DNA of 64,000 nucleotides, from the sequence record AP019521.1; one strand, given 5' to 3'. Shown one piece after another: positions 1,316-18,893 of the stretch (positions are counted from its first letter, which is position 1; each line of letters begins with the position of its first letter). Under the pieces are notes generated by a model. The model had not been told where the DNA came from. It saw only the letters and a list, made by a program, of their open reading frames with translations, and did not search any database. The translations under genes and the position numbers were made by a program. The stretch comes from Escherichia phage KIT01.

Positions 1316-3298
1316 ATGGCTTTATTATCACCGGGCATTGAGCTCAAAGAAACGTCCGTACAGAGTACTGTCGTTCGTAACGCAACGGGTCGTGCAGCGC
1401 TGGTTGGTAAATTCCAGTGGGGCCCTGCTTTCCAGGTAACTCAGATTACTAATGAAGTTGAACTGGTCGACTTATTTGGAGGTCCTAATAACGAAGTTGC
1501 CGATTACTTCATGTCGGGTATGAACTTCCTCCAGTATGGTAACGACCTTCGTACTGTTCGTGTTGTTAACCGTGAATTCGCTAAAAACGCATCTCCGGTA
1601 GCAGGTAACGTCCAAACCACTATTACTACTGCAGGTTCTAACTATGCCGTAGGCGATAAAATTAATATCAAGCACAACCAAACTGTTGTTGAATCCGAAG
1701 GTCGTGTAACTTCAGTAGACACGGATGGTAAAATTCTATCAGTGTTTATTCCTACTGGCAAGATTATTTCTTATGCTCGTTCTCTTAACCAATATCCAGA
1801 CCTTGGGCCTGCATGGACTGCTGAAGTTACTTCAGCTTCTTCGGGTGTGTCCGGTACCATTACGGTCGGTAAAATCGTAACTGATTCCGGTATTCTATTG
1901 ACTGAAGCAGAGAACAGTGAAGAAGCTATTACCTCTCTGGAATTCCAAGCATCTCTTAAACAGTTTGGTATGCCTGGTGTAGTCGCTCTTTATCCTGGTG
2001 AAATTGGTAGTACTCTGGAAGTTGAAATTGTTTCTAAAGCGGCTTATGATGCGGGTTCTAATAAAATGTTGGATATTTATCCAAATGGCGGTACTCGTGC
2101 TTCTGTAGCTAAAGCGGTATTCAACTACGGTCCCCAGTCCGATAACCAGTATGCTATTATTGTTCGTCGTGATGGCGCAATCGTAGAATCCGTCGTACTT
2201 TCTACCAAAGAAGGCGAAAAAGACGTTTATGGTAATAACATTTATCTGGACGATTACTTTGCAAAAGGCACTTCTAATTACATCTATGCCACCTCGTTAA
2301 ACTGGCCTAAAGGCTTCAGTGGTATCATTAATCTGATGGGTGGTGTATCTGCTAACGACCAGGTTACTGCAGGTGATTTGATGCAGGGTTGGGATTTGTT
2401 TGCCGACCGTGAAGCATTACATATCAACCTTCTTATTGCAGGTGCTGTTGCCGGTGAAGGTGATGAAGTTGCTTCTACCGTCCAGAAACACGTTGTTAGT
2501 ATTGCTGATGAACGTCAGGATTGCTTGGCATTTATTTCTCCTCCTAAAGGCCTGTTGGTTAACGTTCCATTGACTCGTGCAGTAGATAATCTTATCGACT
2601 GGCGTACCGGTGCAGGTACTTTCGATACCAACAACATGAACATTAGCACCACTTATGCGGCAATTGACGGTAACTATAAATATCAGTATGACAAATATAA
2701 TGACGTAAACCGTTGGGTGCCTCTGGCCGCTGATATGGCTGGTTTGTGTGCGCGTACAGATGATGTTTCTCAGCCTTGGATGTCTCCGGCCGGTTATAAC
2801 CGTGGTCAGATTCTTAACGTTCTGAAATTGGCAATTGAACCTCGTCAAGCTCAACGTGACCGCATGTACCAAGAAGCTATTAACCCGGTTGTTGGTTTTG
2901 CTGGTGGCGATGGTTTCGTATTGTTTGGTGATAAGACTGCAACTAAAGTTCCATCTCCGATGGACCACATTAACGTTCGCCGTCTGTTCAACATGCTTAA
3001 GAAAAATATCGGTGATGCCTCTAAATATAAACTGTTTGAATTGAACGACAACTTCACTCGTTCAAGCTTCCGTATGGAAGTTTCTCAGTACTTAGATGGT
3101 ATTAAGGCACTTGGTGGGATTTATGAAGGACGTGTGGTTTGTGATACTACGGTGAACACCCCTGTGGTTATCGACCGTAACGAGTTTATTGCTAATATAT
3201 ACGTAAAACCTGCGAGATCGATAAACTACATCACGTTGAACTTCGTTGCAACGAGCACTGGTGCTGATTTTGATGAATTGATTGGACCTTTAGTATAA
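1316..3298 (+). CDS. 18: Tail sheath protein (gp18-like)
   Basis: 660-aa ORF; position after gene 17 and before tail tube gene; TATAAATA box about 30 nt upstream. Confidence 0.9.
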   Translation: MALLSPGIELKETSVQSTVVRNATGRAALVGKFQWGPAFQVTQITNEVELVDLFGGPNNEVADYFMSGMNFLQYGNDLRTVRVVNREFAKNASPVAGNVQTTITTAGSNYAVGDKINIKHNQTVVESEGRVTSVDTDGKILSVFIPTGKIISYARSLNQYPDLGPAWTAEVTSASSGVSGTITVGKIVTDSGILLTEAENSEEAITSLEFQASLKQFGMPGVVALYPGEIGSTLEVEIVSKAAYDAGSNKMLDIYPNGGTRASVAKAVFNYGPQSDNQYAIIVRRDGAIVESVVLSTKEGEKDVYGNNIYLDDYFAKGTSNYIYATSLNWPKGFSGIINLMGGVSANDQVTAGDLMQGWDLFADREALHINLLIAGAVAGEGDEVASTVQKHVVSIADERQDCLAFISPPKGLLVNVPLTRAVDNLIDWRTGAGTFDTNNMNISTTYAAIDGNYKYQYDKYNDVNRWVPLAADMAGLCARTDDVSQPWMSPAGYNRGQILNVLKLAIEPRQAQRDRMYQEAINPVVGFAGGDGFVLFGDKTATKVPSPMDHINVRRLFNMLKKNIGDASKYKLFELNDNFTRSSFRMEVSQYLDGIKALGGIYEGRVVCDTTVNTPVVIDRNEFIANIYVKPARSINYITLNFVATSTGADFDELIGPLV

Positions 3299-3423
3299 TC
3301 TATTATCCCAGGCTGTAATATAAAGAACCTAAAACCATTATACCATGAGTTTGGTTACAGCGTACATCACGTAGAATTGCGCCTGGGATTGATTATTCTT
3401 TAGGAATATGATTTATCAACTGT

Positions 3424-3431
3424 TATAAATA
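3424..3431 (+). promoter_or_regulatory. Late promoter box TATAAATA (gene 19)
   Basis: Exact TATAAATA upstream of the gene 19 start. Confidence 0.5.
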
Positions 3432-3483
3432 AATTAATCAGAACGTTCCTGGTGTGTCCAGGAACTGACTTATGAGGCATCCC

Positions 3484-3975
3484 ATGGAGTTGACAGATAT
3501 CACTCGTGCATTTGAGTCAGGTGACTTTGCACGCCCTAACCTTTTCGAAGTGGAAATTCCATTTCTTGGTAAAAACTTTAGCTTTAAATGTAAAGCAGCA
3601 CCTATGCCAGCAGGCATTGTAGAAAAAGTACCGGTTGGCTACATGAACCGTAAAATTAACGTAGCTGGTGACCGTACGTTTGATGATTGGACCATTACCA
3701 TTTATAACGATGATGCACATGACACTCGTCAAGCAATTGTTGATTGGCAGAATCTCTGTCATGGTATGACCAATGAAATTACCGGTGCAGCACCTGCAGA
3801 ATATAAGAAACAAGCAGTAGTTCGCCAGTTCCATCGTGACGGCAAGACTGTGACCAAAGAAGTTACAATTTACGGCTTATGGCCTACTAACGTTGGTGAA
3901 GTCCAGATGGATTGGGACAGTAACAACGAAGTTGAAACGTTTGAAAGTACGTTCGCTATCGATTGGTGGGAATGA
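3484..3975 (+). CDS. 19: Tail tube protein (gp19-like)
   Basis: 163 aa when started at the second ATG, which has a GAGG ribosome-binding site 6 nt upstream; sequence matches remembered T4 gp19 (ITRAFESGDFARPNLF..., ends DWWE). Confidence 0.85.
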   Translation: MELTDITRAFESGDFARPNLFEVEIPFLGKNFSFKCKAAPMPAGIVEKVPVGYMNRKINVAGDRTFDDWTITIYNDDAHDTRQAIVDWQNLCHGMTNEITGAAPAEYKKQAVVRQFHRDGKTVTKEVTIYGLWPTNVGEVQMDWDSNNEVETFESTFAIDWWE

Positions 3976-3976
3976 G

Positions 3977-3984
3977 TATAAATA
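3977..3984 (+). promoter_or_regulatory. Late promoter box TATAAATA (gene 20)
   Basis: Exact TATAAATA about 50 nt upstream of the portal ATG. Confidence 0.5.
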
Positions 3985-3992
3985 GAATTATC

Positions 3993-4010
3993 AAGGAGCT
4001 TCGGCTCCTT
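3993..4010 (+). terminator. Stem-loop aaggagc-ttcg-gctcctt after gene 19 (terminator or leader hairpin)
   Basis: 7-bp stem with UUCG tetraloop; lies between the late box and the gene 20 start. Confidence 0.4.
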
Positions 4011-4032
4011 ATCCCATTCATCGGAGACTCTA

Positions 4033-5607
4033 ATGGCAAACTTTAATACAATATTAAGTTTTCTTAAGCCATGGGCTAATGAAGACGAAAAAGAATATAA
4101 ACAACAAATTAATAACAATTTAGAGTCTGTCACCGCACCTAAGCTTGATGATGGCGCTCGCGAAATTGAGACACAAGAGCAAAATATCCCTTATAATGCT
4201 CTTATGCAACAGATGTTTGGTAGTAATGAGCCTGAAGTTAAAAATACCAGGGAACTTATTGATACCTACCGTAATTTAATGAATAACTACGAAGTCGACA
4301 ACGCTGTACAGGAAATTGTGTCTGACGCTATTGTCTATGAGGATGATAAAGAAGTAGTTGCATTGAATTTAGACGGGACAGAATTTAGTCAAGCAATTAA
4401 AGATAAAATCTTGGCTGAATTCAGTGAAGTTTTAAACCTTTTAAATTTCCAACGTAAAGGCACTGACCATTTCCAACGCTGGTATGTAGACTCAAGAATT
4501 TTCTTTCATAAAATTATAAACCCTAAAAAAATGAAAGATGGCGTACAAGAGCTTCGTCGCTTAGACCCACGCCAAGTCCAATATATTCGTGAAATCGTTA
4601 CACGTATGGAAGATGGTGTTAAAGTTGTAGACGGATATCGCGAGTTTTTCGTTTATGACACAGGTCATGAAAGTTATTGCGCTGATGGACGCATTTATTC
4701 AGCCGGGACTAAAGTTAAAATTCCTCGTGCTGCTGTGGTTTATGCACATTCTGGATTATTGGATTGTTGTGGTAAAAACATCATTGGCTATTTGCAACGT
4801 GCTATTAAGCCTGCAAACCAGCTTAAATTGATGGAAGACGCAATGGTCATCTACCGTATTACACGTGCTCCTGACCGTCGTGTGTTTTATATCGATACAG
4901 GTAATATGCCTTCACGTAAGGCTGCAGCACAAATGCAACATATCATGAACACGATGAAAAACCGTGTGGTGTATGATGCTTCGACAGGTAAAATTAAAAA
5001 CCAACAACACAATATGTCCATGACTGAAGACTATTGGTTGCAACGTCGTGACGGTAAAGCGGTAACAGAAGTTGATACAATGCCAGGTGCTACTGGTATG
5101 AGTGATATGGATGACGTTCTTTATTTCCGCACAGCACTTTACCGTGCACTGCGTATTCCAGAATCACGTATCCCTAGTGAATCTAATTCAGGAGTTATGT
5201 TTGATGCCGGTACAGCAATCACTCGTGATGAGTTGAAATTTGCTAAATGGATTCGTCAGTTACAAAACAAATTTGAAGAAATTTTCCTAGACCCGTTAAA
5301 AACAAACCTCATTCTTAAAAAGATTATTACAGAAGATGAGTGGGAAAAGGAAATAAATAATATTAAAGTTACGTTTAACCGTGATAGCTATTTCAGTGAA
5401 ATGAAAGATGCTGAAATCATGGAACGCAGAATCAATATGCTAACGATGGCTGAACCATTTATTGGTAAGTACATTTCACATCAAACGGCTATGAAAGATT
5501 TCCTCCAAATGACTGACGAAGAAATTAATCAAGAAGCTAAGCAAATTGAAGAAGAGTCTAAAGAGGCTCGTTTCCAAAACCCAGATGAAGAAGAAGAGGA
5601 TTTCTAA
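4033..5607 (+). CDS. 20: Portal vertex protein (gp20-like)
   Basis: 524-aa ORF at the T4 gene 20 position with TATAAATA upstream; acidic C-terminus. Confidence 0.9.
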
Positions 5608-5870
5608 TGGAAGATTTAATCGAAGCTATTAAATCAAACGACCTCGTAGCAGTTCGTAAAGCAGCAGGCCCGCTTATCGAATCTCGAGTAGCCGCTTTGA
5701 TTGAAGCCCGTAAAGCAGAAATTGCTCGCTCCGTTATGATTGAAGGCGAAGAAGCCGACGAAGATGACGAAGACGACAAAAAATCCGATAAAGCAGATAA
5801 GAAAGACAAAAAAGAATCTGACGATGCGGATGAAGGTGATGACAAAGACGAAGACGAGGACGACGAATAA
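5607..5870 (+). CDS. 67: Prohead core protein (gp67-like), highly acidic C-terminus
   Basis: 87-aa ORF between portal and gp68/gp21; D/E/K-rich tail; start overlaps portal stop. Confidence 0.65.
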
Positions 5871-6298
5871 TGTTCCTTATCCCTGATGATTACGAATTAA
5901 CTCTAGAAAGCGTAGAGGCTAAAATTCCAGAAGCACAGGGACGTTTTGCTGCTCTTTCTGAAGCGCTCGAGAAAAGCGATATAAATAATCTTGTAGAGAA
6001 CATGATTGCTGAAGGCGATATCGAATGTGCTATCGCTCTTGGTTCTTTAAATGAATCAATGGCTCTTAACGAATTTATCGTTAAACACGTTTCCTCTAAA
6101 GGTGTGCTTACTCGTACTAAAGATATTAAAACCCGTCAACGTAACGCATTCCAAACGACAGGTTTATCTAAAGCAAAACGCCGTCAGATTGCTCGCAAAG
6201 CATCTAAAACCAAACGTGCTAATCCATCTACTCAAGTGCGTGCTGAACGTAAGCGTAAGAAAGCCCGTTCTAAACGTAAAGCTTTTGGACTTAACTAA
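5870..6298 (+). CDS. 68: Prohead core protein (gp68-like)
   Basis: 142-aa ORF with basic C-terminus, immediately upstream of the prohead protease; ATGA-type overlap with neighbours. Confidence 0.65.
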
Positions 6299-6933
6299 TG
6301 AAACCTGAATTGCTCATCGAACATTGGGGACAACCAGGTGAAATTATCGATGGGGTTCCTATGTTGGAATCTCATGATGGAAAAAATTCTGGGCTTGCTC
6401 CCGGCCTTTATATAGAAGGCATTTTCATGCAAGCAGAGGTAGTTAACCGTAATAAACGCCTTTACCCAAAACCTATTTTGGAAAAAGCCGTTGCCGATTA
6501 TATGGCTGAACAGGTTGCTACTAAACAAGCTTTAGGAGAATTAAACCACCCACCTCGTGCTAACGTCGACCCTATGCAAGCTGCTATCATTATTGAAGAT
6601 ATGTGGTGGAAAGGTAATGATGTTTATGGACGTGCACGTATCATCGAAGGTGACCATGGCCCGGGTGATAAACTAGCCGCAAATATCCGAGCTGGCTGGG
6701 TTCCTGGTGTTAGTTCTCGCGGTCTTGGTTCTTTAACTGAAACCAATAAAGGATATAAGCGTGTAAACGAAGGTTATAAATTAACCGTCGGTGTTGATGC
6801 AGTATGGGGACCATCTGCTCCTGATGCTTATGTAACTCCAAAGCAAATTACAGAATCACAAACGGTAGAAACCGATACCAGTGCCGATGACGCCTTTATG
6901 GCTCTCGCAGAGGCCATGAAAAAAGCGTTATAA
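6298..6933 (+). CDS. 21: Prohead core protease (gp21-like)
   Basis: 211-aa ORF in the gp21 slot between gp68 and scaffold gene. Confidence 0.85.
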   Translation: MKPELLIEHWGQPGEIIDGVPMLESHDGKNSGLAPGLYIEGIFMQAEVVNRNKRLYPKPILEKAVADYMAEQVATKQALGELNHPPRANVDPMQAAIIIEDMWWKGNDVYGRARIIEGDHGPGDKLAANIRAGWVPGVSSRGLGSLTETNKGYKRVNEGYKLTVGVDAVWGPSAPDAYVTPKQITESQTVETDTSADDAFMALAEAMKKAL

Positions 6934-6936
6934 ATA
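6929..6936 (+). promoter_or_regulatory. Late promoter box TATAAATA (gene 22)
   Basis: Exact TATAAATA about 28 nt upstream of the ATG. Confidence 0.5.
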
Positions 6937-6963
6937 TTATTATCTAAACAACAGGACTACAAA

Positions 6964-7779
6964 ATGCTTAAAGAACAACTGATCGCCGAAGCACAGAATA
7001 TTGATGCTTCCGTTGCTCTTGACAGTATTTTCGAATCAGTTAATATTTCTCCGGAAGCAAAAGAAACTTTCGGCACTGTATTCGAAGCTACCGTCAAGCA
7101 ACACGCCGTGAAACTGGCTGAATCTCACATCGCTAAAATCGCTGAAAAAGCGGAAGAAGAAGTAGAGAAAAATAAAGAAGAAGCTGAAGAAAAAGCCGAT
7201 AAGAAAATCCAAGAAGCTGCCGGTCGTTTCCTTGACCACGTTGCTAAAGAATGGATGGCTGAAAACCAGCTGGCTGTTGATAAAGGTATTAAAGCCGAAC
7301 TGTTCGAATCCATGTTGATGGGTATGAAAGAACTGTTTGTTGAACACAATGTGGTTGTTCCAGAAGAAGCAGTAGATGTTGTTGCTGAAATGGAAGAAGA
7401 GCTCCAAGAGCAGAAAGATGAAACCGCTCGTCTGTTCGAAGAAGTTGGTATGCGCGATGCGTATATTAATTACGTGCAGCGTGAAGTTGCTGTTACGGAA
7501 GCAACTAAAGACCTGACTGAATCTCAAAAAGAAAAAGTTAGTTCTCTGGTAGAAGGCATGGATTATTCCGATGCATTCGGTAAAAAAATTGGCGCTATTG
7601 TTGAAATGGTTAAAGGTCAATCTGACGTTGAAAACCCAATCACCGAAGCCGCTATAAATAAAAATGTAGACGATGCTGCGGCACTGAATTACATTTCAGA
7701 AGCAGTTGAAGAAAAAGGCGCTAAGCCTACCCTGTCCTTCGCGGACCTGTCTGCAATCGCAGCATCACGAATTTCTTAA
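6964..7779 (+). CDS. 22: Prohead scaffolding core protein (gp22-like)
   Basis: 271-aa, highly charged E/K/A-rich helical protein immediately upstream of the major capsid gene. Confidence 0.85.
   Translation: MLKEQLIAEAQNIDASVALDSIFESVNISPEAKETFGTVFEATVKQHAVKLAESHIAKIAEKAEEEVEKNKEEAEEKADKKIQEAAGRFLDHVAKEWMAENQLAVDKGIKAELFESMLMGMKELFVEHNVVVPEEAVDVVAEMEEELQEQKDETARLFEEVGMRDAYINYVQREVAVTEATKDLTESQKEKVSSLVEGMDYSDAFGKKIGAIVEMVKGQSDVENPITEAAINKNVDDAAALNYISEAVEEKGAKPTLSFADLSAIAASRIS
7653..7660 (+). promoter_or_regulatory. Candidate late promoter for gene 23, inside the gene 22 3' end
   Basis: TATAAATA about 140 nt upstream of the gene 23 start. Confidence 0.4.
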
Positions 7780-9741: not shown

Positions 9742-9749
9742 TATAAATA
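9742..9749 (+). promoter_or_regulatory. Late promoter box TATAAATA (gene 24)
   Basis: Exact TATAAATA about 30 nt upstream of the ATG. Confidence 0.5.
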
Positions 9750-9778: not shown

Positions 9779-11059
9779 ATGGCTAAAATTAACGACCTTT
9801 TAAAAGAGTCGACCATTACTTCGAGTTCTTCGATTGGTCGTCCAAATTTAGTAGCTTTAACCAGAGCTACGACCAAACTTGTTTATACCGACCTTGTAGC
9901 TCAGCAGCGTACTAACCAACCTTTGGCTGCTCTATATGGTATCAAATATCTTACAGAAAAAGACGAATTATCTTTCCAGACGGGTGCTACTTATTCCGGC
10001 GCAGTATCCGCTAAAGACCGTGCCACTATCCCAGTTTTCACTGCAGGCGCTGTTTATGCTAAAGATGATTTGTTCCAATTTGAAAACGTAGTTTATAAAG
10101 CTTTGGTAGCAAGCCCATTTGCCGGTGCTACTGGTGATGAATACGAACAACTTCAAGAAGCTATTGTTAAGTTGACTATCCGTATTATGTCCGAAGCCGC
10201 ACTGACTGAGCGTTTTGAAGGTCCTCAAGAAGTAGATATCTCTGAAGCCAGATTCATCGTTAATAAATGGAACGCCCCGGTTAAATCACGTAAGTTGAAG
10301 AGTACTGTTACCGTAGAACTGGCTCAAGACCTCGAAGCAAATGGTTTCGATGCCCCTAATTTCTTGGAAGACCTCCTGGCTACTGAAATGGCTGATGAAA
10401 TCAACAAAGATATTCTTCAGTCCCTGGTTACGGTTTCCAAGCGTTATAAAGTTGAAGGTTTGTGTGATGATGGCTTAATTGACCTGAGTTATGCTAACTC
10501 ACCGGAAGCTTCTCGCAAGCTTTATGAATTGGTGTGTGAAATGGTTTCTCATATCCAGCGCGCAACCTCTTATACGGCAACTTATGTAGTAGCGAGTACT
10601 CGTGTAGCTGCTGTTCTGGCTGGTTCCGGATGGTTGAGACATACCCCACAGAACGACAAATATCTTTCTGCAAGTGCATACGGATTCCTGGAAAATGGTT
10701 TGCCTCTGTATTGTGATACCAACACGCCGATTGATTATGTTACTGTAGGTGTTAAAGAGGAATTTGGTGGGAAGGAAGCGGTAGGTTCTCTGTTCTATGC
10801 ACCGTATACCGAAGGCCTTGATTTGGCTGACCCTGAACATGTGGGTACATTTAAAGTGGTCGTTGACCCTGAAAGCCTGCAACCATCTATTGCATTAATG
10901 GTTCGTTATGCACTGGCTGCCAACCCTTATACGGTTACTGCTGATGATAAACAAGCCCGTATTATTGATGCGACTAATATGGATTTGATGGCGGGACGTT
11001 CTGATATGTCCGTATTGCTTGGTGTGAAACTTCCTAAAGTTTTGACTGAATTAAACTAA
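9779..11059 (+). CDS. 24: Capsid vertex protein (gp24-like, gp23 paralog)
   Basis: 426-aa ORF after gene 23 with TATAAATA box upstream; size and position match T4 gp24. Confidence 0.9.
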   Translation: MAKINDLLKESTITSSSSIGRPNLVALTRATTKLVYTDLVAQQRTNQPLAALYGIKYLTEKDELSFQTGATYSGAVSAKDRATIPVFTAGAVYAKDDLFQFENVVYKALVASPFAGATGDEYEQLQEAIVKLTIRIMSEAALTERFEGPQEVDISEARFIVNKWNAPVKSRKLKSTVTVELAQDLEANGFDAPNFLEDLLATEMADEINKDILQSLVTVSKRYKVEGLCDDGLIDLSYANSPEASRKLYELVCEMVSHIQRATSYTATYVVASTRVAAVLAGSGWLRHTPQNDKYLSASAYGFLENGLPLYCDTNTPIDYVTVGVKEEFGGKEAVGSLFYAPYTEGLDLADPEHVGTFKVVVDPESLQPSIALMVRYALAANPYTVTADDKQARIIDATNMDLMAGRSDMSVLLGVKLPKVLTELN

Positions 11060-11066
11060 CAAAAAA

Positions 11067-11082
11067 GGGACCTTACGGTCCC
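11067..11082. terminator. Stem-loop gggacc-ttac-ggtccc between convergent gene 24 and rnlB
   Basis: 6-bp GC stem flanked by A-run and T-run (bidirectional). Confidence 0.6.
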
Positions 11083-11090
11083 TTTATCAT

Positions 11091-12098
11091 TTATTTGGAT
11101 ACTAATTCAATCCATACGGCTCGTAAGGTATCTTTTACGCACTCAACAAGCTGCTTTTTAACTTCAACAGGATTTTCTGCGTCGGTTAATTCTAATTCTT
11201 CACGGGCAGCTTCTTCAAGGATATCCTGGACTGTCAAGCCCATTACCTTTCCAAAATCCTTCGGCGATACTTCACCAATCTTACTGATGACATTGTTAAT
11301 GCGGTTAACAGTCACATAATCAGTGAATTGCCACATCAAATCCATATCATCTTGGGATAAAACCACTGCAACTTTAATAGGCTTATCAGACTTTTTCTTC
11401 TCGCTGAATTTAGAGTTCTTACATTTAATCGCTACACGATTTCCATTAGGAAGCCAGGTAGGAACATCAGGTTTCAGTACAAAGCCTTCAGCCGTGAATA
11501 CTTTACCTTCTACCTTAGGAATAAAGTCTGTCGAGTTTGCAATAGTTAAGCCAGCGTTATCCACTGCAAAATTATAATCGGGAACAACCGAATCAAAATC
11601 ATTAGGAAGTTTAATAAGGTCTTCAAAGCTACCAGTGGCCAGACATGGAGCTACCTTAAACTTATGAATAATACAGAAGGCTTCCATCAATGTATCGGTT
11701 AGAACAGATTCAGTACCGTCTTCCTTAGTAACTCGGATATCAAACACATAAAAGTCTTTATCACCGTAGTCCACATTCTTCTGAATACCTGTCCCAGCGA
11801 ATTCGCCATAAATCTGGTACGACTGGTAATTAATCGATTCAATTAGTTGTTGAACGGATTTAATAGAATCAGCATAGTTCTTAAGTACAATTTCATAACC
11901 ATAGAAATCTTCAGCAGGGAGAATTGGGCCAGTGCGCTTGGCGCATGTGACTGCGTCACGTTCTATGATTAAACTAAAGTTGGTTCCATGAATCTTCTCA
12001 CGTGCTACCCATTCACCGCCAGTCAAACCATTAGTACGGAGTTTTTCGATAAACTTATTGTTGTAGTGGTTTTCGAGACTGCTATATTTCTTGAACAT
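11091..12098 (-). CDS. rnlB: RNA ligase 2 (Rnl2)
   Basis: 335 aa; N-terminus [19 protein letters not shown]... and nucleotidyltransferase motif KIHGTN match remembered T4 Rnl2; same position as T4 rnlB. Confidence 0.9.
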
Positions 12099-12212
12099 AA
12101 ATCACCATAATAAATATAATTAAATAGAAGAGCTAGTAATCTTCTGTCACCAAGCCAAATGGTTTAACGGAAGGACCTAGACCCATTATAACACATCTAA
12201 ATTTAAAGCATA

Positions 12213-12434
12213 TTACTTTGAACTAGAACGCGCTTTGCGCCGAACCTTGTTGTTCAATCTTTTACGATAAACAACCTTTTCTTTCGATTTAAACTTGGCC
12301 TTGGCTTGTTCCACATCAACCCATGCTTTGGCCATGTCCTTAGCGGTACCACCTAATTTTTTAGCAATTTCTATAAAATTCAGTCCAGATTCGTGTAAAA
12401 AATGTACTTTAACCTTATCCATAACAATTCTCAT
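12213..12434 (-). CDS. Hypothetical small basic protein (possible helix-turn-helix; T4 24.x slot)
   Basis: 73-aa ORF with K/R-rich C-terminus; early-type promoter (GTTTAC-18-TAGTAT) immediately upstream on minus strand. Confidence 0.5.
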   Translation of the reverse strand: MRIVMDKVKVHFLHESGLNFIEIAKKLGGTAKDMAKAWVDVEQAKAKFKSKEKVVYRKRLNNKVRRKARSSSK

Positions 12435-12451
12435 ATTAAGTGCGTAAATCT

Positions 12452-12481
12452 ATACTACCATGAGAATTTTAACTTGTAAAC
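12452..12481 (-). promoter_or_regulatory. Early-type promoter for the small basic ORF at 12213-12434
   Basis: Reverse complement GTTTAC-N18-TAGTAT; overlaps the region just upstream of the collagen-like gene on the other strand. Confidence 0.45.
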
Positions 12482-12491
12482 AGGAAATTTT

Positions 12492-14054
12492 ATGGCACAA
12501 ACTACCGGTGAAAAAGAAGGCGTATTTTACGGTTATTCTCTTTATGATTTGAATAAAGAAAAACTAATAACCTTTGACGAATTACTTACAGGTATTAAAG
12601 GCGACGCTGGGGAAAATGGTGATATCGGTCCTCAAGGTCCTATTGGTTTACCTGGCCCGCAAGGTATCCAAGGTGAAGTTGGGCCTAAAGGTCCTAAAGG
12701 CGATATCGGTCTTCAGGGTATAGCAGGGCCTGCTGGTCCTCAAGGTCCACAAGGTGAACGAGGAATACAGGGCTTAACAGGACCACAAGGCCAAATAGGT
12801 ATTGCAGGGCCACAAGGCGTCAAAGGTGATACCGGTCCTCAAGGTCCTGTCGGCCCACAAGGTCCAGCAGGTGTACAAGGCGTACAAGGCGTCAAAGGTG
12901 ATACAGGTCCAGCAGGCCCTGCAGGTTTAACTTGGAAAGGAACTTGGGACTCAGCTACGGAGTATTCAATAAATGAAGCCGTAGGATATGGAGGTTCTTT
13001 GTATTTTGCTACAGAAACCGTGCCTGTCGGCGAAATCCCATCTTTAGCCTCCGACTATTGGGAAGTTTTGGCTACCGAAGGTCCAGAAGGTCCTCAAGGA
13101 CCACAAGGCATTCAGGGACCTATGGGTCCTCAGGGTATTCAAGGTCCTTTGGGTCCTGTAGGCCCGCAAGGTATCCAAGGACCAAGAGGCTTACAAGGAC
13201 CTGAAGGCGAAATAGGACCTCGTGGTTTGCAGGGGTTAAAAGGTGAAACAGGTGCTCAAGGACCGCAGGGCATTCAAGGGCTTAAAGGCGAGCCAGGGGC
13301 CCAGGGACCTGATGGTATTGGTTTAACTGGGCCTCAAGGACCAATTGGCCTTACAGGTCCAGCGGGCCCTCAGGGTATAAGAGGAGCCATAGGACCTAAA
13401 GGTGATACAGGTTTAACTGGTGCCCAAGGCGAGCAAGGTGCCCCAGGTGTTAAAGGTGATACCGGTCCTCAAGGATTACAAGGGGTTAAGGGAGATAAAG
13501 GGGATAAAGGAGATACTGGTGCCCAAGGATTACAAGGGGTTAAAGGAGATAAAGGAGACAAAGGAGATACCGCGCCTCATAATAAAGTATACTATTTAGG
13601 ACAAACCCCATGGTTCCACAACTCGTATGCTAAACATCAACTTCCAGGAACCAATGATTGGCGGATTACTGTAACAGGTACAACCAACTTTGAATCCTAT
13701 TCATCAGGTAACGTTAGAATAGGATTTTTTAATAATACTTCTGCATCCAGATCATGCACGTTTACATTGATTTCTTATGATGCTAACGGCTCACAGAAAA
13801 ATACAAAATACAATACTGTGCATAATGTTATGGTTCAAAGTTCTTATTATAAATTCTGGGGTGATAATGCCGATTCATTTATTATAGGCGGCACTTCTAA
13901 TATATGTGAAGGGTTTTTTACTGATAATGCCACCAATAAAACCTATCATATAAAATTTATAGGATTGGTCAAAGCCACAGCTACGGTACCAGGCAAATAT
14001 GTTCTTGAAGTTGAAGAGATTATTTCTGGTGGCGAACCTGTAAAATATTATTAA
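12492..14054 (+). CDS. Collagen-like repeat protein: two Gly-X-Y blocks split by a W/Y-rich module, plus a C-terminal globular domain
   Basis: 520-aa ORF; two long uninterrupted Gly-X-Y tracts (about aa 37-146 and 198-364); intervening [27 protein letters not shown]...DYWEVLA segment; AGGAAA ribosome-binding site before the ATG. Confidence 0.8.
12600..13570 (+). repeat. Gly-X-Y triplet (collagen-type) coding repeats, two tracts split by a non-repeat module
   Basis: 9-nt periodicity of GGN-NNN-NNN codons visible directly in the sequence within the 12492-14054 ORF. Confidence 0.85.
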
Positions 14055-14064
14055 TGGAGGTTGA

Positions 14065-14928
14065 ATGGAACCGGTACAAGCTATATTAGAGCCTGGCGTA
14101 ATAGATGTAGAATATGGTAATACTTATTCAGCAACAGTAACTCTAACTCCTATAGAAAATATCCCAGATGGTTCCGTGATAAGATATGATTGGGTTGTTA
14201 ATAACAAGTTTGTTGGTACGGGTGAAGCTACTCGTACCACCCAACCATCTCAGACCGGAAATTATGTGTTATCATGTAGAGTATTCATTACCCCGCCTAA
14301 TGAAAATACTGTAATGATAACAACTAATAAATCATATGGGTATGTATATAAAAATTCTGATACAAGTCCAGTAGATGCAGAAATATTATACGATAATAAA
14401 ATATACCAAATAGGGAGCAAAGTTAGATTATTAGCTACGGCTAATAACCCCGATACTAACTATGTTAAAGGTATTATATGGAAGGATGCTGACGGGAATA
14501 TAATAGGTATAGGGCGGGAATATATCCATACAATGCAATCTGAATATGATATAGTTCGTGCTAAAGTCACAATGGATTCGCCTACTAGAGATGAATTCAG
14601 TAAGAACTTTACCATACATTTATATGCTATAAATGTTCAAGAAGGAACTTGTATAAGATACATTCATCCTTTAGACCATCGGGATGCTGGATTTATCTGG
14701 TGCGGATGGTGGGTTATGGATGAAGTTCAACGAGCAGTAAAACTTGGATTGGATTGGAAAAATCCTGAAGGAACTGAGTTAAATTATAAATGTGATTTAG
14801 AAACACTGTCATTATTGCTCAAAACATATCCTGAAGCTGAAGTTCAGGAATCAAGGCACGGGCATATAATAACCAGACCGCAAATTGAGTCCGGTGAAAT
14901 ATATGAAAAGCCATATGAAGTAAAATAA
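14065..14928 (+). CDS. Hoc-like paralog: Ig-like N-terminal region plus Hoc-type capsid-binding C-terminal domain
   Basis: 287 aa; C-terminal HPLDHRDAGFIWCGWWVMDEVQ...YPEAEVQESRHGHII aligns with canonical Hoc C-terminus (HPLPVRNSAYIWCGWWVMDEIQ...YPEVDVQESRNGYIV) encoded convergently downstream; GGAGG ribosome-binding site. Confidence 0.75.
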   Translation: MEPVQAILEPGVIDVEYGNTYSATVTLTPIENIPDGSVIRYDWVVNNKFVGTGEATRTTQPSQTGNYVLSCRVFITPPNENTVMITTNKSYGYVYKNSDTSPVDAEILYDNKIYQIGSKVRLLATANNPDTNYVKGIIWKDADGNIIGIGREYIHTMQSEYDIVRAKVTMDSPTRDEFSKNFTIHLYAINVQEGTCIRYIHPLDHRDAGFIWCGWWVMDEVQRAVKLGLDWKNPEGTELNYKCDLETLSLLLKTYPEAEVQESRHGHIITRPQIESGEIYEKPYEVK

Positions 14929-14933
14929 AAAAG

Positions 14934-14949
14934 GGACCTTACGGTCCCT
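14934..14949. terminator. Stem-loop gggacc-ttac-ggtccc between Hoc-like gene and hoc (same sequence as at 11067)
   Basis: aaaaagggaccttacggtcccttttattt: identical hairpin flanked by A/T runs, shared by convergent genes. Confidence 0.6.
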
Positions 14950-14954
14950 TTTAT

Positions 14955-16085
14955 TTATGGATAGAAATAAATTATTCCTGCCTCCAATGAGGTTTTGTGT
15001 ACGATATATCCATTACGAGATTCTTGTACATCAACCTCTGGATAGTCGGTAATCATTTTTTGAAGTGTATATCGGTGCAAATAATACGGGCTATCCGGGT
15101 CATCGGTTTTCCAGTCTTTGCCTTCAAGAGTCATTTTCTGGATTTCATCCATAACCCACCATCCACACCAGATATAAGCTGAATTGCGAACTGGCAATGG
15201 ATGTACATAAGGTAATTCACCATCTGGAACTGGTGCGACTTTAGCCGTGACTGTCACATTACCGGTTTTGGTAACGGTCGCAGGGTTATAATCAGTCGCC
15301 GAAACCACAACAGAAACTTCAATAACCTGTGAACCTTCAGTGTTTGTATCGATTGCTAGAGTATCTGTGGTACCAGCAATACCAATGCCATCTTTCTTCC
15401 AAGAATAAGCAAAAGTGGCACCACTAGGCGCACCTGCTACGGTAGCTTTAAAAGAAGCCGGAGTTCCTTCAGGTACATTAATAGAGGCTGGCGTTAAATT
15501 AACAGAAACCCCAGACATTGTTTTCTTAACAAAAGAAACCGTTATGCCTTTAGCAGCAGTTGCTGAACCGTATTCCGGAGAGGTAACAGTAACTTCACAA
15601 TTCAAGGTATAATTTGCTTCGGCTGCTTCAGTTAGTGTAATAGTTTTAGAGGTTTGGCCTGAAATTACGGTGGTATTTCGTTTCCAAACATAATTAATTG
15701 TTGCATCAGCAGGAGCACCGGTTACATTAGCCGTAACAACTTGGGATTGGCCGACTTCTTTAGAAACGGAAGTAGGGTCCAAAGCCAAAGAGATATCCAT
15801 AGTTTTATTAGATACGGTAACTTCAAAGGTGTCTTCGGCTGTCTCAAGAGGGCCCGCATCGCCAGGGTCAGAAGTTACTACTACTTTTATAACTTTCTTA
15901 CCCGCAGGAGCAGCACCCGTATATCTCAAAACATTAGTGGTTTCTGGGTTAGCAGCTCCATCAACGGTCCATACATATGCAATGGTTCCCCCTGTTACAA
16001 CTGGGTCGGTTGCGGTAGCAGTGTAATTAGCGCTTTCGCCTATTTTCATAGACGCTGCGCCGGCTATACTTACAGTAAAGGCCAT
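14955..16085 (-). CDS. hoc: Highly immunogenic outer capsid protein Hoc
   Basis: 376 aa, same length as T4 Hoc; near-identical C-terminal capsid-binding region (ELPYVHPLP...IWCGWWVMDEIQKMT...DWKTDDPDS) and Ig-like repeats. Confidence 0.9.
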   Translation of the reverse strand: MAFTVSIAGAASMKIGESANYTATATDPVVTGGTIAYVWTVDGAANPETTNVLRYTGAAPAGKKVIKVVVTSDPGDAGPLETAEDTFEVTVSNKTMDISLALDPTSVSKEVGQSQVVTANVTGAPADATINYVWKRNTTVISGQTSKTITLTEAAEANYTLNCEVTVTSPEYGSATAAKGITVSFVKKTMSGVSVNLTPASINVPEGTPASFKATVAGAPSGATFAYSWKKDGIGIAGTTDTLAIDTNTEGSQVIEVSVVVSATDYNPATVTKTGNVTVTAKVAPVPDGELPYVHPLPVRNSAYIWCGWWVMDEIQKMTLEGKDWKTDDPDSPYYLHRYTLQKMITDYPEVDVQESRNGYIVHKTSLEAGIIYFYP

Positions 16086-16094
16086 AGTTTACCC

Positions 16095-16772
16095 TTATTT
16101 TAAAGTGACAAAAGATGAATTACGCGTTTCACGTACTAATACTGAGCCATTACGATTGATGTAATAAATCAGACTGAATAATGTTTGGTGGGCTGAAGGA
16201 TGTTGGAAATCTTTAGGACGTTCTTTCCAATCAGGGGTTTCAGAAATCCATTGATAAATCCACCAAGGAACAGTACAGTAACCTGGGTTTTTACCAATAA
16301 GCAAAAGATTGGGACTAAAGTTTTCAGGGAGTTCAAATTTAGGTTTTTCTGATTCTTTAACCAAGGTTATAGCTTGATTGAATTTCTCTTCGACAAACGG
16401 GACATCCTCTTCAATAATCTCTACCTTAGGAAGTTCGGCTACCTCAACGACTTCAACAACTGCCTCAGGAGCATCGAACAACAGGGTGGCTTCTTCTTTA
16501 GCCGGTTCAGCACCATCAACAAATTCGTTAGCACCATTGAGTTCGTCGGCAGCATCAATCAAATCAGAAATAGACAAACCTTCGGTTTCCGGAAGTGGTT
16601 CGTCAGCCAAGGCTTTAAGACCTTCAGTGATATTGATAATCAAATTATCAACCGAACGGGTTTTCTTAAGTTTTAAACCGAACTGTTCACCGTATTCGAT
16701 TAACTTAGCTTTAGCTTCTTTTTTATCTTCGAGTGCACGAAGCTCTTCAATATATTGATGGTCCATAATCAT
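16095..16772 (-). CDS. inh: Inhibitor of prohead protease (Inh-like)
   Basis: 225-aa ORF adjacent to hoc in the T4 inh position; acidic middle region. Confidence 0.7.
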   Translation of the reverse strand: MIMDHQYIEELRALEDKKEAKAKLIEYGEQFGLKLKKTRSVDNLIINITEGLKALADEPLPETEGLSISDLIDAADELNGANEFVDGAEPAKEEATLLFDAPEAVVEVVEVAELPKVEIIEEDVPFVEEKFNQAITLVKESEKPKFELPENFSPNLLLIGKNPGYCTVPWWIYQWISETPDWKERPKDFQHPSAHQTLFSLIYYINRNGSVLVRETRNSSFVTLK

Positions 16773-16786
16773 TCTCTTTTCTAGTG

Positions 16787-16794
16787 TATAAATA
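16787..16794 (+). promoter_or_regulatory. Late promoter box TATAAATA (uvsW)
   Basis: TATAAATA about 28 nt upstream of the uvsW ATG. Confidence 0.45.
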
Positions 16795-16822
16795 TAACTA
16801 TATTTATAACTGAGAATTACTT

Positions 16823-18319
16823 ATGCAAATTCAAGTACATTTTGATAATTTTAGTCATGTTCGTGTTGAATGCGATGAATCTACATTCTACGAACTCAGA
16901 GACTATTTTAGCTTTGAAGCTGATGGATATAAATTCAACCCTAAATTTCGTTATGGGCAATGGGATGGACGTATTCGTCTTCTAGATTATAACCGTAAAC
17001 TGCCTTATGGACTCGTCCCTCAAATTAAAAAGTTCGCTGAACAATTTGAATACTCTCTGTGGATTGACCCACGTATTCTTGAACAGGAAGATATTTCTCG
17101 TGAAGATTTTGACTCATGGGTGGCTTCTCAAGAAATTTATTCAGGGTCTACCAAGATTGAGCCGCATTGGTATCAGAATGAAGCCGTATACAACGGCCTG
17201 ACAAAACGTCGCGCAATTCTGAATTTACCTACATCCGCAGGTAAATCATTAATCCAGGCACTCCTGAGTCGATATTACGTTGAGAACTATGAAGGTAAAA
17301 TCCTCATCTTAGTTCCTACTACTGCACTTGTCGACCAGATGATTAATGACTTCATCGATTATCGTTTGTTCCCTAAAGCCGCAATGCTTGGTATTCGTTC
17401 AGGTACCGCTCGTGATTCTGATGCAATGATTTACGTTTCGACTTATCAAACTGCTATTAAGCAACCTAAAGAATGGTTTGCTCAGTTTGGTATGTTTATG
17501 AACGACGAATGCCACTTGGCTACAGGTAAATCTATTTCTACCATCATCGAAGGCCTAACCAACTGTATGTTTAAATTCGGTTTGTCTGGTTCTTTAAAAG
17601 ATGGTAAAGCTAATTTAATGCAATATATGGGTTTGTTTGGTGATGTGTTTAAGCCAGTATCCACCTCCCAGTTAATGGAAGAAGGACAGGTTACAGACCT
17701 TAAAATCAACAGTATTTTCCTTCGATACCCGGACGAATTCACCGTTAAAATGAAAGGTAAAGATTACCAATCAGAAATTAAAGTCATTACTAAGGCTACT
17801 CGTCGTAATAAATGGGTTGCTAATTTAGCTGTTAAACTCGCTAAGAAAGAAGAGAACGTATTCCTGATGTTTAAAAACATTGAACACGGTAAAACTCTTT
17901 TTGAAATGGTTAAAGAGCAACATAAAGAAGTTTATTACGTATCAGGTGAAGTTAATACCGAAACGCGTAATGCTCTGAAAGTAATGGCGGAAAATGGTAA
18001 GGGTATTATTGTTGTGGCAAGTTATGGTGTGTTCTCTACTGGTATTTCCGTTAAGAACCTTCACCACGTTGTATTTGCCCATCCAGTAAAATCTAAAATC
18101 ATTGTACTCCAGACAATTGGTCGTGTACTCCGTAAACATGCCTCTAAATCAACAGCACAGGTGTGGGATATCATCGACGACATGGGTGTTAAGCCTAAAT
18201 CAGCTACGGCTAAAAAGAAATATGTTCATTTGAACTACGCCCTCAAACACGCTTTAGAACGTATTCAACGTTATGCTGATGAGAAATTTAATTACGTAAT
18301 GAAACAGGTGGATTTATGA
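16823..18319 (+). CDS. uvsW: UvsW helicase (SF2, recombination/repair)
   Basis: 498 aa; Walker A GKS (LPTSAGKSL), DECH box (MNDECH); TATAAATA box upstream; position matches T4 uvsW. Confidence 0.9.
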   Translation: MQIQVHFDNFSHVRVECDESTFYELRDYFSFEADGYKFNPKFRYGQWDGRIRLLDYNRKLPYGLVPQIKKFAEQFEYSLWIDPRILEQEDISREDFDSWVASQEIYSGSTKIEPHWYQNEAVYNGLTKRRAILNLPTSAGKSLIQALLSRYYVENYEGKILILVPTTALVDQMINDFIDYRLFPKAAMLGIRSGTARDSDAMIYVSTYQTAIKQPKEWFAQFGMFMNDECHLATGKSISTIIEGLTNCMFKFGLSGSLKDGKANLMQYMGLFGDVFKPVSTSQLMEEGQVTDLKINSIFLRYPDEFTVKMKGKDYQSEIKVITKATRRNKWVANLAVKLAKKEENVFLMFKNIEHGKTLFEMVKEQHKEVYYVSGEVNTETRNALKVMAENGKGIIVVASYGVFSTGISVKNLHHVVFAHPVKSKIIVLQTIGRVLRKHASKSTAQVWDIIDDMGVKPKSATAKKKYVHLNYALKHALERIQRYADEKFNYVMKQVDL

Positions 18320-18543
18320 AAACCTTTAAAGAAGTTATTCAGGAAGCATCTATTGAAAGCTTCATGGCTAAAATTGGTTCTTGTCAGACTATGGATGGTC
18401 TGAAGGAATTGGAAAAGTATTACAAAACTCGTAGTAAGGAAGCCGAACTTCGTGATTCGGACGATATTAGCGTGCGTGATGCATTGGCTGGTAAGAGAGC
18501 TGAATTGGAGTCGATGGACGACGAGGAAGAGGAAGATTTCTAA
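18316..18543 (+). CDS. uvsW.1: UvsW.1-like small acidic protein
   Basis: 75-aa ORF overlapping the uvsW stop (ATGA), followed by a stem-loop. Confidence 0.6.
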   Translation: MKTFKEVIQEASIESFMAKIGSCQTMDGLKELEKYYKTRSKEAELRDSDDISVRDALAGKRAELESMDDEEEEDF

Positions 18544-18551
18544 ACAAAAAA

Positions 18552-18573
18552 GGCCCAACCTTTCGGAAGGGCC
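18552..18573 (+). terminator. Stem-loop after uvsW.1
   Basis: ggcccaacctttcggaagggcc: nested GC stem with tetraloop. Confidence 0.5.
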
Positions 18574-18602
18574 AATAACCATAAATGGCTATACACACTA
18601 GA

Positions 18603-18770
18603 CTAAAGTAGTAATTGGGTTTCGTTCAGCTGTTCTTCAGTGTTTTCCGTAACTGGCAAGCTTTGAACGTAATTATAGCATGAGCCCGGATGAACCGGAC
18701 CTTTTTCTGTTTCAACAACCAATGCAGCATCGATTGGAGTTTTACAGACAACGCAAATCTTATCTGACAT
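18603..18770 (-). CDS. Hypothetical small Cys-containing protein (not in ORF track, below 60 aa)
   Basis: Manually translated 55-aa minus-strand ORF MSDKICVVCKTPIDAALVVETEKGPVHPGSCYNY...; coordinates approximate. Confidence 0.3.
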   Translation of the reverse strand: MSDKICVVCKTPIDAALVVETEKGPVHPGSCYNYVQSLPVTENTEEQLNETQLLL

Positions 18771-18893
18771 GATTGTCTCCTTAGTTTAACTTACATACCT
18801 ATTTATTACTTGCTAAAGCAGCATTAATGAATTCTTGGAGAAGTTTCATCTTATCGGCATCTACTTTAATGGGTTTGGTATTTTTAGTACGTC

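Follow-up and report, generated by a model that had tools for sequence, protein, structure and literature searches.

Do two adjacent genes of Escherichia phage KIT01 (AP019521.1), one collagen-like and one Hoc-like, encode proteins that work together on the phage head? We analyzed a 64-kb window of this DNA. The window is a T4-like (Straboviridae) genome segment, and all coordinates refer to it. The collagen-like gene lies at 12492 to 14054 on the plus strand and encodes 520 amino acids (aa). The Hoc-like gene follows at 14065 to 14928 on the same strand and encodes 287 aa. The canonical hoc gene is convergent with it (14955 to 16085, minus strand, 376 aa) and was identified by PHROG 1149 (E value, 1e-108) and by synteny with IME08, JS98, and VR26. 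The whole 64 kb contained no other collagen open reading frame (ORF) and no Hoc ORF beyond the Hoc-like gene and hoc. An initial annotation of the sequence had read the two genes as an inserted module and had proposed, from co-location, that a collagen-stalked binding protein and a capsid anchor act as a pair. Our comparison points in the same direction. The cassette may encode a two-component head-surface fiber, made up of a Hoc-like adaptor and a collagen fiber. We hold this reading tentatively, at slightly less than an even chance.

The pair is not unique to the window. About 25 T4-like phages from the subfamilies Tevenvirinae and Emmerichvirinae have a collagen-like gene immediately before a second Hoc-like gene. 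These pairs belong to two types. Type A is the type of the window. A tblastn search with the immunoglobulin (Ig)-like region of the Hoc-like protein retrieved it only from VR25, VR26, VR5, VR7, ESCO10, and Kosakonia phage 305, and a search with the N-terminal half of the collagen-like protein retrieved the same T4-like phages at full length. The two genes were adjacent in each of the five phages inspected, VR26, VR25, VR5, VR7, and Kosakonia 305. A metagenomic T4-like contig of 173 kb (L035) contains the same type A pair, with 42% identity in the Hoc-like protein.

Type B combines a different collagen N-terminus (64 to 86 aa, with the motif LFGHDGRGxFxG) with a different Hoc-like clade. Adjacency was seen by inspection in TH15, ABTNLsp5, Esco_phi_B-01, CGG4-1, Aeromonas phage 65 (Emmerichvirinae), and AS4. 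Separate tblastn hits map a collagen gene and Hoc-like B to neighboring coordinates in JS10, dhaeg, dhabil, CLBP2, Ec2-ASingh, Cronus, IT22, FBB1, and AhFM11. Of these, dhaeg, dhabil, CLBP2/CLB_P2, Ec2-ASingh, Cronus, and IT22 also gave a match to the type B N-terminus. Hoc-like B is also present in GomatiRiver_11 and Aeromonas 65.2, both of which lay outside the collagen-gene check. We found no collagen gene within 7 to 8 kb of 31 T4-like single-Hoc loci from IMG/VR and metagenomes.

The two genes are closely spaced in most of these genomes. The gap is 9 to 10 nucleotides (nt) in the window, VR26, TH15, ABTNLsp5, and L035, 29 nt in Kosakonia 305, and 127 nt in VR7. The genes overlap by 4 nt in Aeromonas 65 and AS4. 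The pair has also left the usual locus. In Aeromonas 65, tk and another gene separate it from hoc-1. Kosakonia 305 contains the pair (6434 to 7648 of its locus, L027) and no canonical minus-strand hoc between the pair and inh; the Hoc-like protein appears to be the only Hoc of that phage. Because the pair persists in these two phages, the link joins the two genes and not merely the hoc locus. It is kept across two subfamilies down to 27 to 35% identity in the N-terminal part of the Hoc-like protein. This recurrence across distant T4-like phages suggests that the extra Hoc may serve as the head anchor of the fiber.

The two types of N-terminus are combined with exchangeable distal ends. The C-terminal domains of the collagen-like proteins fall into at least five families. 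C1 occurs with type A in the window, has no type B example, and was otherwise found in two proteins, P0001 and P0002. P0001 has a type A N-terminus, and P0002 has a Rogue1-type N-terminus. C2 occurs with type A in VR26 and Kosakonia 305, with type B in Esco_phi_B-01, and in A7_1 (Vequintavirinae). C3 was found only with type A, in VR5 and VR7. C4 occurs with type A in L035, with type B in IME08, and in CR3 (Vequintavirinae). C5 was found only with type B, in TH15, ABTNLsp5, CGG4-1, Aeromonas 65, and AS4. C2 and C4 are thus each combined with type A and with type B. The collagen-like protein always has the N-terminus whose type corresponds to that of the neighboring Hoc-like protein, even though the DNA of the swapped C-terminal domain separates them, and the type B N-terminus was found only in phages with Hoc-like B. 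A cognate anchor would produce this matching. A fiber that is attached to the virion by its N-terminus and binds ligands with its C-terminus would show a conserved proximal end and a shuffled distal end. The functional pairing, which had been proposed from co-location, is now backed by comparative evidence: co-retention, relocation, and co-variation of the collagen N-terminal type with the Hoc-like type.

The Hoc-like protein is a genuine Hoc paralog. It matched phrog_1149 (E value, 9.8e-55) and phrog_21694 (E value, 3.4e-16), and it is 28% identical to the canonical Hoc of the window (BLASTP E value, 7e-29). Identity is 95 to 96% to the proteins of VR25 and VR26 and about 34% to those of VR5, VR7, and Kosakonia 305. 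The AlphaFold2 (AF2) model has a predicted local distance difference test (pLDDT) score of 85.9 and contains two Ig-like beta-sandwiches and a C-terminal alpha/beta domain. Foldseek matched it to tandem Ig structures, Fc receptors, and RB49 Hoc (3SHS; E value, 1.7e-6). The two N-terminal Ig-like domains, assigned from AF2 and Foldseek, are encoded at 14065 to 14649 (plus strand; aa 1 to 95 and 100 to 190). The C-terminal capsid-binding domain is encoded at 14650 to 14928, including the stop codon (plus strand; aa 196 to 287; YIHPL...IWCGWWVMDE...VQESR).

We found 21 invariant columns among 13 Hoc and Hoc-like sequences, 19 of them in the C-terminal domain. They include Y199, H201, P202, L203, W212, G214 to M218, and Q261 to S263. 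The Hoc-like protein of the window retains every invariant residue of this domain. It is expected to bind the capsid, and the canonical hoc product would be a likely competitor for that capsid site. The capsid anchor of the initial annotation thus appears as a Hoc paralog with its predicted capsid-binding domain intact, on the combined evidence of PHROG, BLASTP, the invariant columns, AF2, and Foldseek. Like the Hoc proteins of T4 and RB49, Hoc-like A has tandem Ig-like N-terminal domains and a C-terminal capsid-binding domain; its gene is convergent with canonical hoc. In contrast to them, it has two Ig-like domains instead of three, belongs to a separate clade, and is always preceded by a collagen-like gene. 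The adaptor role is the hypothesis that we add.

The collagen-like protein has the parts expected of such a fiber. The type A N-terminal segment (12492 to 12590, plus strand; aa 1 to 33) is a putative virion-attachment or trimer-nucleation segment. It is 97% identical to those of VR26 and VR7 and 56 to 60% identical to those of Kosakonia 305 and Cronobacter phage CR3 gp011. It is followed by collagen region 1 (12591 to 12932, plus strand; aa 34 to 147), with 38 Gly-X-Y triplets. A knob interrupts the collagen at 12933 to 13079 (plus strand; aa 148 to 196) and contains the motif P....YW. Collagen regions 2 and 3 (13080 to 13571, plus strand; aa 197 to 277 and 280 to 360) have 27 triplets each, with a two-residue break between them. 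The match to Pfam Collagen (PF01391) has an E value of 4e-43. There are 92 triplets in all, with Pro at X in 35 and Gln at Y in 34. As a predicted triple helix, they would span about 79 nm.

The knob is best described as CBM5/12-like, not as a proven member of that family. A profile of the knob from 12 homologs was compared with the PDB, and the top matches were mostly CBM5/12-type chitin-binding domains at marginal E values of 9e-4 to 0.02. They include 3wx7 (E value, 9e-4) and 1ed7 (E value, 3e-3), and the source enzymes are chitinases and chitin deacetylases. The match to Pfam CBM_5_12 had an E value of 0.037 and a score of 14.5 bits, below the cutoff of 26.2. The stalk with a binding module that had been read from the sequence thus corresponds to the Gly-X-Y repeats and a CBM5/12-like knob.

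The C-terminal domain (13572 to 14054, including the stop codon, plus strand; aa 361 to 520) belongs to family C1 and is the presumed distal ligand-binding end. It is very rare. It had no match by tblastn in 50,697 phage records or in word-indexed searches that included 5.8 billion proteins. An exhaustive phmmer search of 1.84 billion representatives retrieved only two real homologs, P0001 and P0002. C1 shows a distant relationship to C4, the domain found in IME08, CR3, and L035 (hhalign probability, 85%; E value, 6.6e-6). We found no PHROG or Pfam family for it and no relative in the PDB profile search. The single-sequence AF2 model was unusable (pLDDT, 31.7) and gives at most a hint of an all-beta fold. 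The full collagen-like protein had no exact match in a look-up of 153 billion genes. A scan of IMG/VR for the genomic context of P0001 gave matches to collagen repeats only, with no C1 domain and no type A N-terminus.

The cassette is an accessory module, and comparison of sequences shows that it moves horizontally as one unit. In the phage collection, Dhakavirus IME08 has the closest backbone, with 92% nucleotide identity over 11081 to 12497 and 95% over 14921 to 18808. Homology breaks at 12497 and 14921. The interval between these breakpoints is 2.4 kb in the window, 942 bp in IME08, where it holds a different Hoc-like gene, and about 92 bp in JS98, where it holds no gene. Because homology breaks at these two positions and JS98 has only about 92 bp there, the unit is an exchangeable module. 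The inserted module of the initial annotation therefore held up against the related T4-like genomes IME08, JS98, and VR26, as either an insertion or a replacement. At the DNA level, Gaprivervirus VR26 shares 84.5% identity with the window over the Hoc-like gene, the hairpin that follows it, and the 3' end of hoc. Identity to VR26 is 74% over the first 1 kb of the collagen gene, and this similarity ends within the collagen repeats, at about 13483. At 13451 to 13579, a 54-nt unit is duplicated in tandem (2.4 copies, 84% match) and encodes repeated GDKGDKGDT triplets. The duplication lies where the similarity to VR26 ends and may be a recombination junction.

The cassettes of VR7 (ORF196/197) and of VR25 and VR26 (Gaprivervirus) lie at the same locus, and the N-terminal 360 aa of their collagen-like proteins are about 60 to 76% identical to those of the window. 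The genes have been annotated since VR7 as "tail fiber protein" and "Hoc-like." The cassette of the window differs from the VR cassettes by its Dhakavirus backbone, by a C1 domain instead of C2 or C3, and by the absence of a 73-nt leader with a mini-ORF and AATAAATA.

Homologs of the collagen-like protein also occur outside the T4-like phages. The type A N-terminus, with the same architecture, is present in the Vequintavirinae CR3 (gp011), A7_1 (gp112), PBES02, CR8, and the POP phages. CR3 gp011 and A7_1 gp112 share with the window the order of type A N-terminus, collagen, CBM5/12-like knob, and collagen, and they end in C4 or C2. They differ in that the gene lies near neck genes and has no Hoc-like neighbor. 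The gene is upstream of the neck genes in CR3 and A7_1, is also downstream of the major capsid protein (MCP) gene in CR3, and occurs with one or two other collagen-like genes. No Hoc-like partner was found in Vequintavirinae or in Rogue1 by tblastn and Ig-domain hidden Markov models. In CR3, three collagen-like genes (1,093, 103, and 456 aa) are clustered between the MCP and neck genes (1663 to 7362 of its locus, L026). The largest of them, gp008, has a weak Fibritin_C match (E value, 0.0012), which is a hint of neck or head fibers in Vequintavirinae.

In Rogue1 (Drexlerviridae), a homolog with a DUF1737-type N-terminus is encoded between a Phage_cement gene and the MCP gene (2858 to 5903 of its locus, L033). 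The decoration gene was identified by Phage_cement PF22758 (E value, 3e-23). We take the position of the Rogue1 collagen gene to be the slot of gene 12 in SPP1. Several Rogue1-like records and phrog_22681 label the homolog "DNA polymerase," which looks like an annotation error.

These positions bear on an alternative reading of the collagen-like protein as an accessory tail or whisker fiber. The Hoc-like protein would then be functionally unrelated, and the adjacency would stem from one or two ancestral cassettes. The best PHROG matches of the collagen-like protein are labeled tail fiber (phrog_5073 [E value, 7e-118] and others), collagen repeats are common in phage tail fibers (PMC4621102), and the swapped C-terminal domains behave like receptor-binding tips. 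However, the genes of all three phage groups lie among head, decoration, or neck genes and outside tail-fiber clusters. The collagen repeats, not experiments, appear to be the source of the label "tail fiber protein." The T4-like gene adjoins hoc, inh, and gene 24, and not a tail or baseplate module. A tail fiber would also leave the tight coupling of the pair in two subfamilies, at the low Hoc-like identities given above, to be explained. We consider this alternative unlikely.

A head location has a precedent. SPP1 gp12 is a collagen-like trimer at the hexamer centers of the capsid (PMC7602432) and is our precedent, by analogy, for a collagen-like head-surface protein. The protein of the window, like gp12, is collagen-like; gp12 is encoded beside the capsid gene, and the Rogue1 homolog is in a comparable position, which is a positional analogy only. 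gp12 is a protein of about 6.6 kDa with 8 triplets and binds the capsid directly. The protein of the window differs by its 92 triplets, its two globular domains, and its putative Hoc-derived adaptor.

Direct binding of this kind would fit another account, in which both proteins are on the head surface and do not touch. The Hoc-like protein would be an alternative decoration to Hoc, and the fiber would bind the capsid, vertex, or neck directly by its N-terminal segment. The two genes would travel together as accessory late head genes in one hypervariable slot. Several observations favor it. SPP1 gp12 binds hexamers directly, and the Rogue1 collagen gene, with another N-terminus, adjoins a capsid gene. 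Vequintavirinae use the type A N-terminus without any Hoc, and this segment is far more conserved than the Ig domains of the Hoc-like protein. The weak Fibritin_C match of CR3 gp008 points the same way. It leaves unexplained why T4-like loci that lack a second Hoc-like gene never yielded a collagen gene, why the pair moved jointly in Aeromonas 65, and why the N-terminal type tracks the Hoc-like type across swapped C-terminal domains. We regard it as improbable, yet as the strongest of the alternatives.

The promoters bear on whether the products belong to the virion. The initial annotation had stated that neither gene has a canonical late box immediately upstream and that their timing may differ from that of the core structural genes. 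The first part is correct for the window. No exact TATAAATA was found on the plus strand from 11000 to 14100; the closest approximations, each with one mismatch, are at 12109 and 12115. The cassette lacks this mark of a T4 late gene. The absence is peculiar to the window and Esco_phi_B-01, which have neither a late box nor a mini-ORF leader before the collagen gene. TH15 and ABTNLsp5 have a perfect TATAAATA between a conserved upstream block and the collagen ATG. VR5, VR7, and VR26 have their extra 73 nt there, and the mini-ORF in it has 20 codons. The position of the collagen ATG in the window is that of the start of the VR mini-ORF. Because the homologous genes of TH15 and ABTNLsp5 have perfect boxes, late, structural timing is the norm for the family.

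Exact TATAAATA boxes are present elsewhere in the window, at 9742 (upstream of gene 24) and back to back between inh and uvsW at 16787 (plus strand) and 16801 (minus strand). Canonical late promoters are thus used nearby and not before the cassette. In the rnlB/24.3 intergenic region (12105 to 12125), TAATAAATATAATTAAAT resembles the TAATAAATATTAAAT box that precedes the VR collagen genes. At 380 nt upstream of the cassette, this sequence could be a variant late promoter or a chance resemblance in AT-rich DNA.

The missing box would fit a Hoc-like protein that is a folding or assembly factor for the fiber, like the chaperone genes downstream of tail-fiber genes, or a pair that is no part of the virion. 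The position of the Hoc-like gene immediately downstream of the fiber gene would fit it as well. Such a role would not account for the retention of all residues conserved in capsid-binding Hoc domains, for the apparent sole Hoc of Kosakonia 305, or for the late promoters of the relatives. We think it very improbable.

Several points weigh against the adaptor-and-fiber reading itself. Hoc is a monomer and a collagen is a trimer, which is a mismatch of stoichiometry and symmetry. The presence of the type A N-terminus in Vequintavirinae without a nearby Hoc or Hoc-like Ig homolog argues against a simple model in which the anchor binds an Ig surface. Between the window and VR7, the N-terminal anchor is 97% identical and the Ig domains of the Hoc-like protein are 20 to 43% identical; this also counts against that model, since the partner surface would be expected to be conserved. 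The co-variation of types A and B rests on two types only, and the co-occurrence of the pair is not phylogenetically independent. The absent late box in front of the cassette of the window belongs here as well.

IME08 is a further point of this kind. Its type B collagen gene lies just after gene 24b (566 to 1962 of its locus, L002), is annotated "tail fiber-like," and has one frameshift, with the type B N-terminus and the collagen body in different frames; it is either a pseudogene or the result of a sequencing error. This gene is 2.5 kb away from Hoc-like B. Directly before Hoc-like B is a 23-codon remnant of another type B gene (3374 to 3476; MPDNPLYGHDGRG...). The arrangement means that a Hoc-like gene can persist without an adjacent intact partner. 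Finally, the literature yielded no proteomic, electron microscopy, or interaction data for any family member, and for VR7, Rogue1, and Kc305 we found no paper with virion data about these genes.

Under the two-component reading, a sequence of steps can be proposed. T4 Hoc sits at the center of gp23 hexamers. The Hoc-like protein would dock on the capsid by its C-terminal domain, at the site of Hoc, with its two Ig-like domains pointing outward. It may then serve as the docking adaptor for the collagen-like protein. The latter would trimerize to a fiber of about 80 nm and would be attached by its conserved 33-aa N-terminal segment. The CBM5/12-like knob midway and the variable beta-rich tip may bind surface glycans or other ligands. 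The fiber could plausibly serve in reversible preadsorption to cells or help the phage adhere to mucus or particulate matter. The collagen repeats appear to act as crossover sites at which the distal domain is swapped.

The cassette is bounded by elements that are shared with relatives. The two ORFs are intact, and the gap of 10 nt given for them is exact (14055 to 14064). Each gene has its own ribosome-binding site, as had been read from the sequence. That of the Hoc-like gene is GGAGG at 14056 to 14060 (plus strand), within the gap and 4 nt before the ATG. That of the collagen-like gene is a weaker AGGA at 12482 to 12485 (plus strand), 6 nt before the ATG. The left boundary is a conserved block, TTGTAAACAGGA (12474 to 12485). 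Its minus strand holds the -35 element of an early-type promoter that belongs to the DUF2774/24.3-like gene (12213 to 12434, minus strand), which is divergent from the cassette. A promoter scan placed this promoter at 12452 to 12480 on the minus strand, with TTTACA (12480 to 12475), 17 nt, and TG-TAGTAT (12457 to 12452). The divergent early promoter that had been proposed for this gene is plausible. The block is kept in VR5, VR7, VR26, TH15, ABTNLsp5, Esco_phi_B-01, IME08, and cassette-free JS98. A sigma-70-like promoter on the plus strand at 12428 to 12456 (9/12 match) was rejected as not above chance, with 21 such sites found against 16.7 expected.

The right boundary is a bidirectional terminator hairpin, GGGACCTTACGGTCCC (14933 to 14948), that is common to the Hoc-like gene and convergent hoc. 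The initial annotation had correctly described it as shared with hoc and identical to the copy after gene 24; the position is 14933 to 14948, not 14934 to 14949. The copy after gene 24 is at 11067 to 11082, and the identity runs over 25 nt (AAAAAAGGGACCTTACGGTCCCTTT). We estimate that about 2e-6 such 25-nt pairs would be expected by chance in 64 kb. Both copies have a terminator-like score and lie at convergent gene ends (gene 24/rnlB and Hoc-like/hoc). Near variants follow gene 24 in VR5, JS98, ABTNLsp5, and Esco_phi_B-01, and IME08 has one between its two hoc genes. An insertion scar was ruled out, since relatives carry variants of this hairpin at the same gene ends as their usual terminator; it is a reused T4-type terminator and not a mark of insertion.

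To the left of the cassette are gene 24 (9779 to 11059, plus strand) and rnlB (11091 to 12098, minus strand). To the right of hoc are inh (16095 to 16772, minus strand) and uvsW (16823 to 18319, plus strand). The window contains a single copy of gene 24, between upstream minus-strand ORFs and rnlB. Tandem pairs of gene 24 are present in JS98, VR7, VR26, and Kosakonia 305, and a 24b is annotated in IME08.

We found no description of the collagen/Hoc-like pairing in the literature that could be searched. The genes themselves are known, and the window adds a Dhakavirus with a type A cassette and a very rare distal domain. As a system, the pair would be a variant of known capsid decoration and head-fiber systems. 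The head fibers of phi29 (gp8.5) and the fibritin of T4 are dispensable trimeric fibers that aid attachment (PMC7602432). They differ from the proposed fiber in that they are alpha-helical coiled coils that attach directly, at quasi-3-fold sites or at the neck. Taken more broadly, at least two T4-like subfamilies may carry an undescribed two-component capsid adhesin, in which adaptor lineages A and B are matched to their own fiber N-termini, the fiber is about 80 nm long, and the pool of distal domains is shared with Vequintavirinae and Drexlerviridae. We put this wider claim forward with still more reserve than the reading of the window.

The pattern gives rise to a hypothesis that is directly testable in the isolated phages VR26, TH15, CGG4-1, Aeromonas 65, and Kosakonia 305. 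The comparison further points to a systematic problem of annotation, in which collagen repeats lead to "tail fiber protein" and some Rogue1-like records carry "DNA polymerase." Hoc is a model for the adherence of phages to mucus and a widely used display platform, and we know of no natural partner of Hoc. If the hypothesis is true, it would account for the two hoc genes that are kept in some T4-like phages, and the pair would be a natural plug-in system for capsid display. Capsids could then bear swappable adhesins, and the phage head too, not the tail alone, would carry exchangeable ligand-binding specificity.

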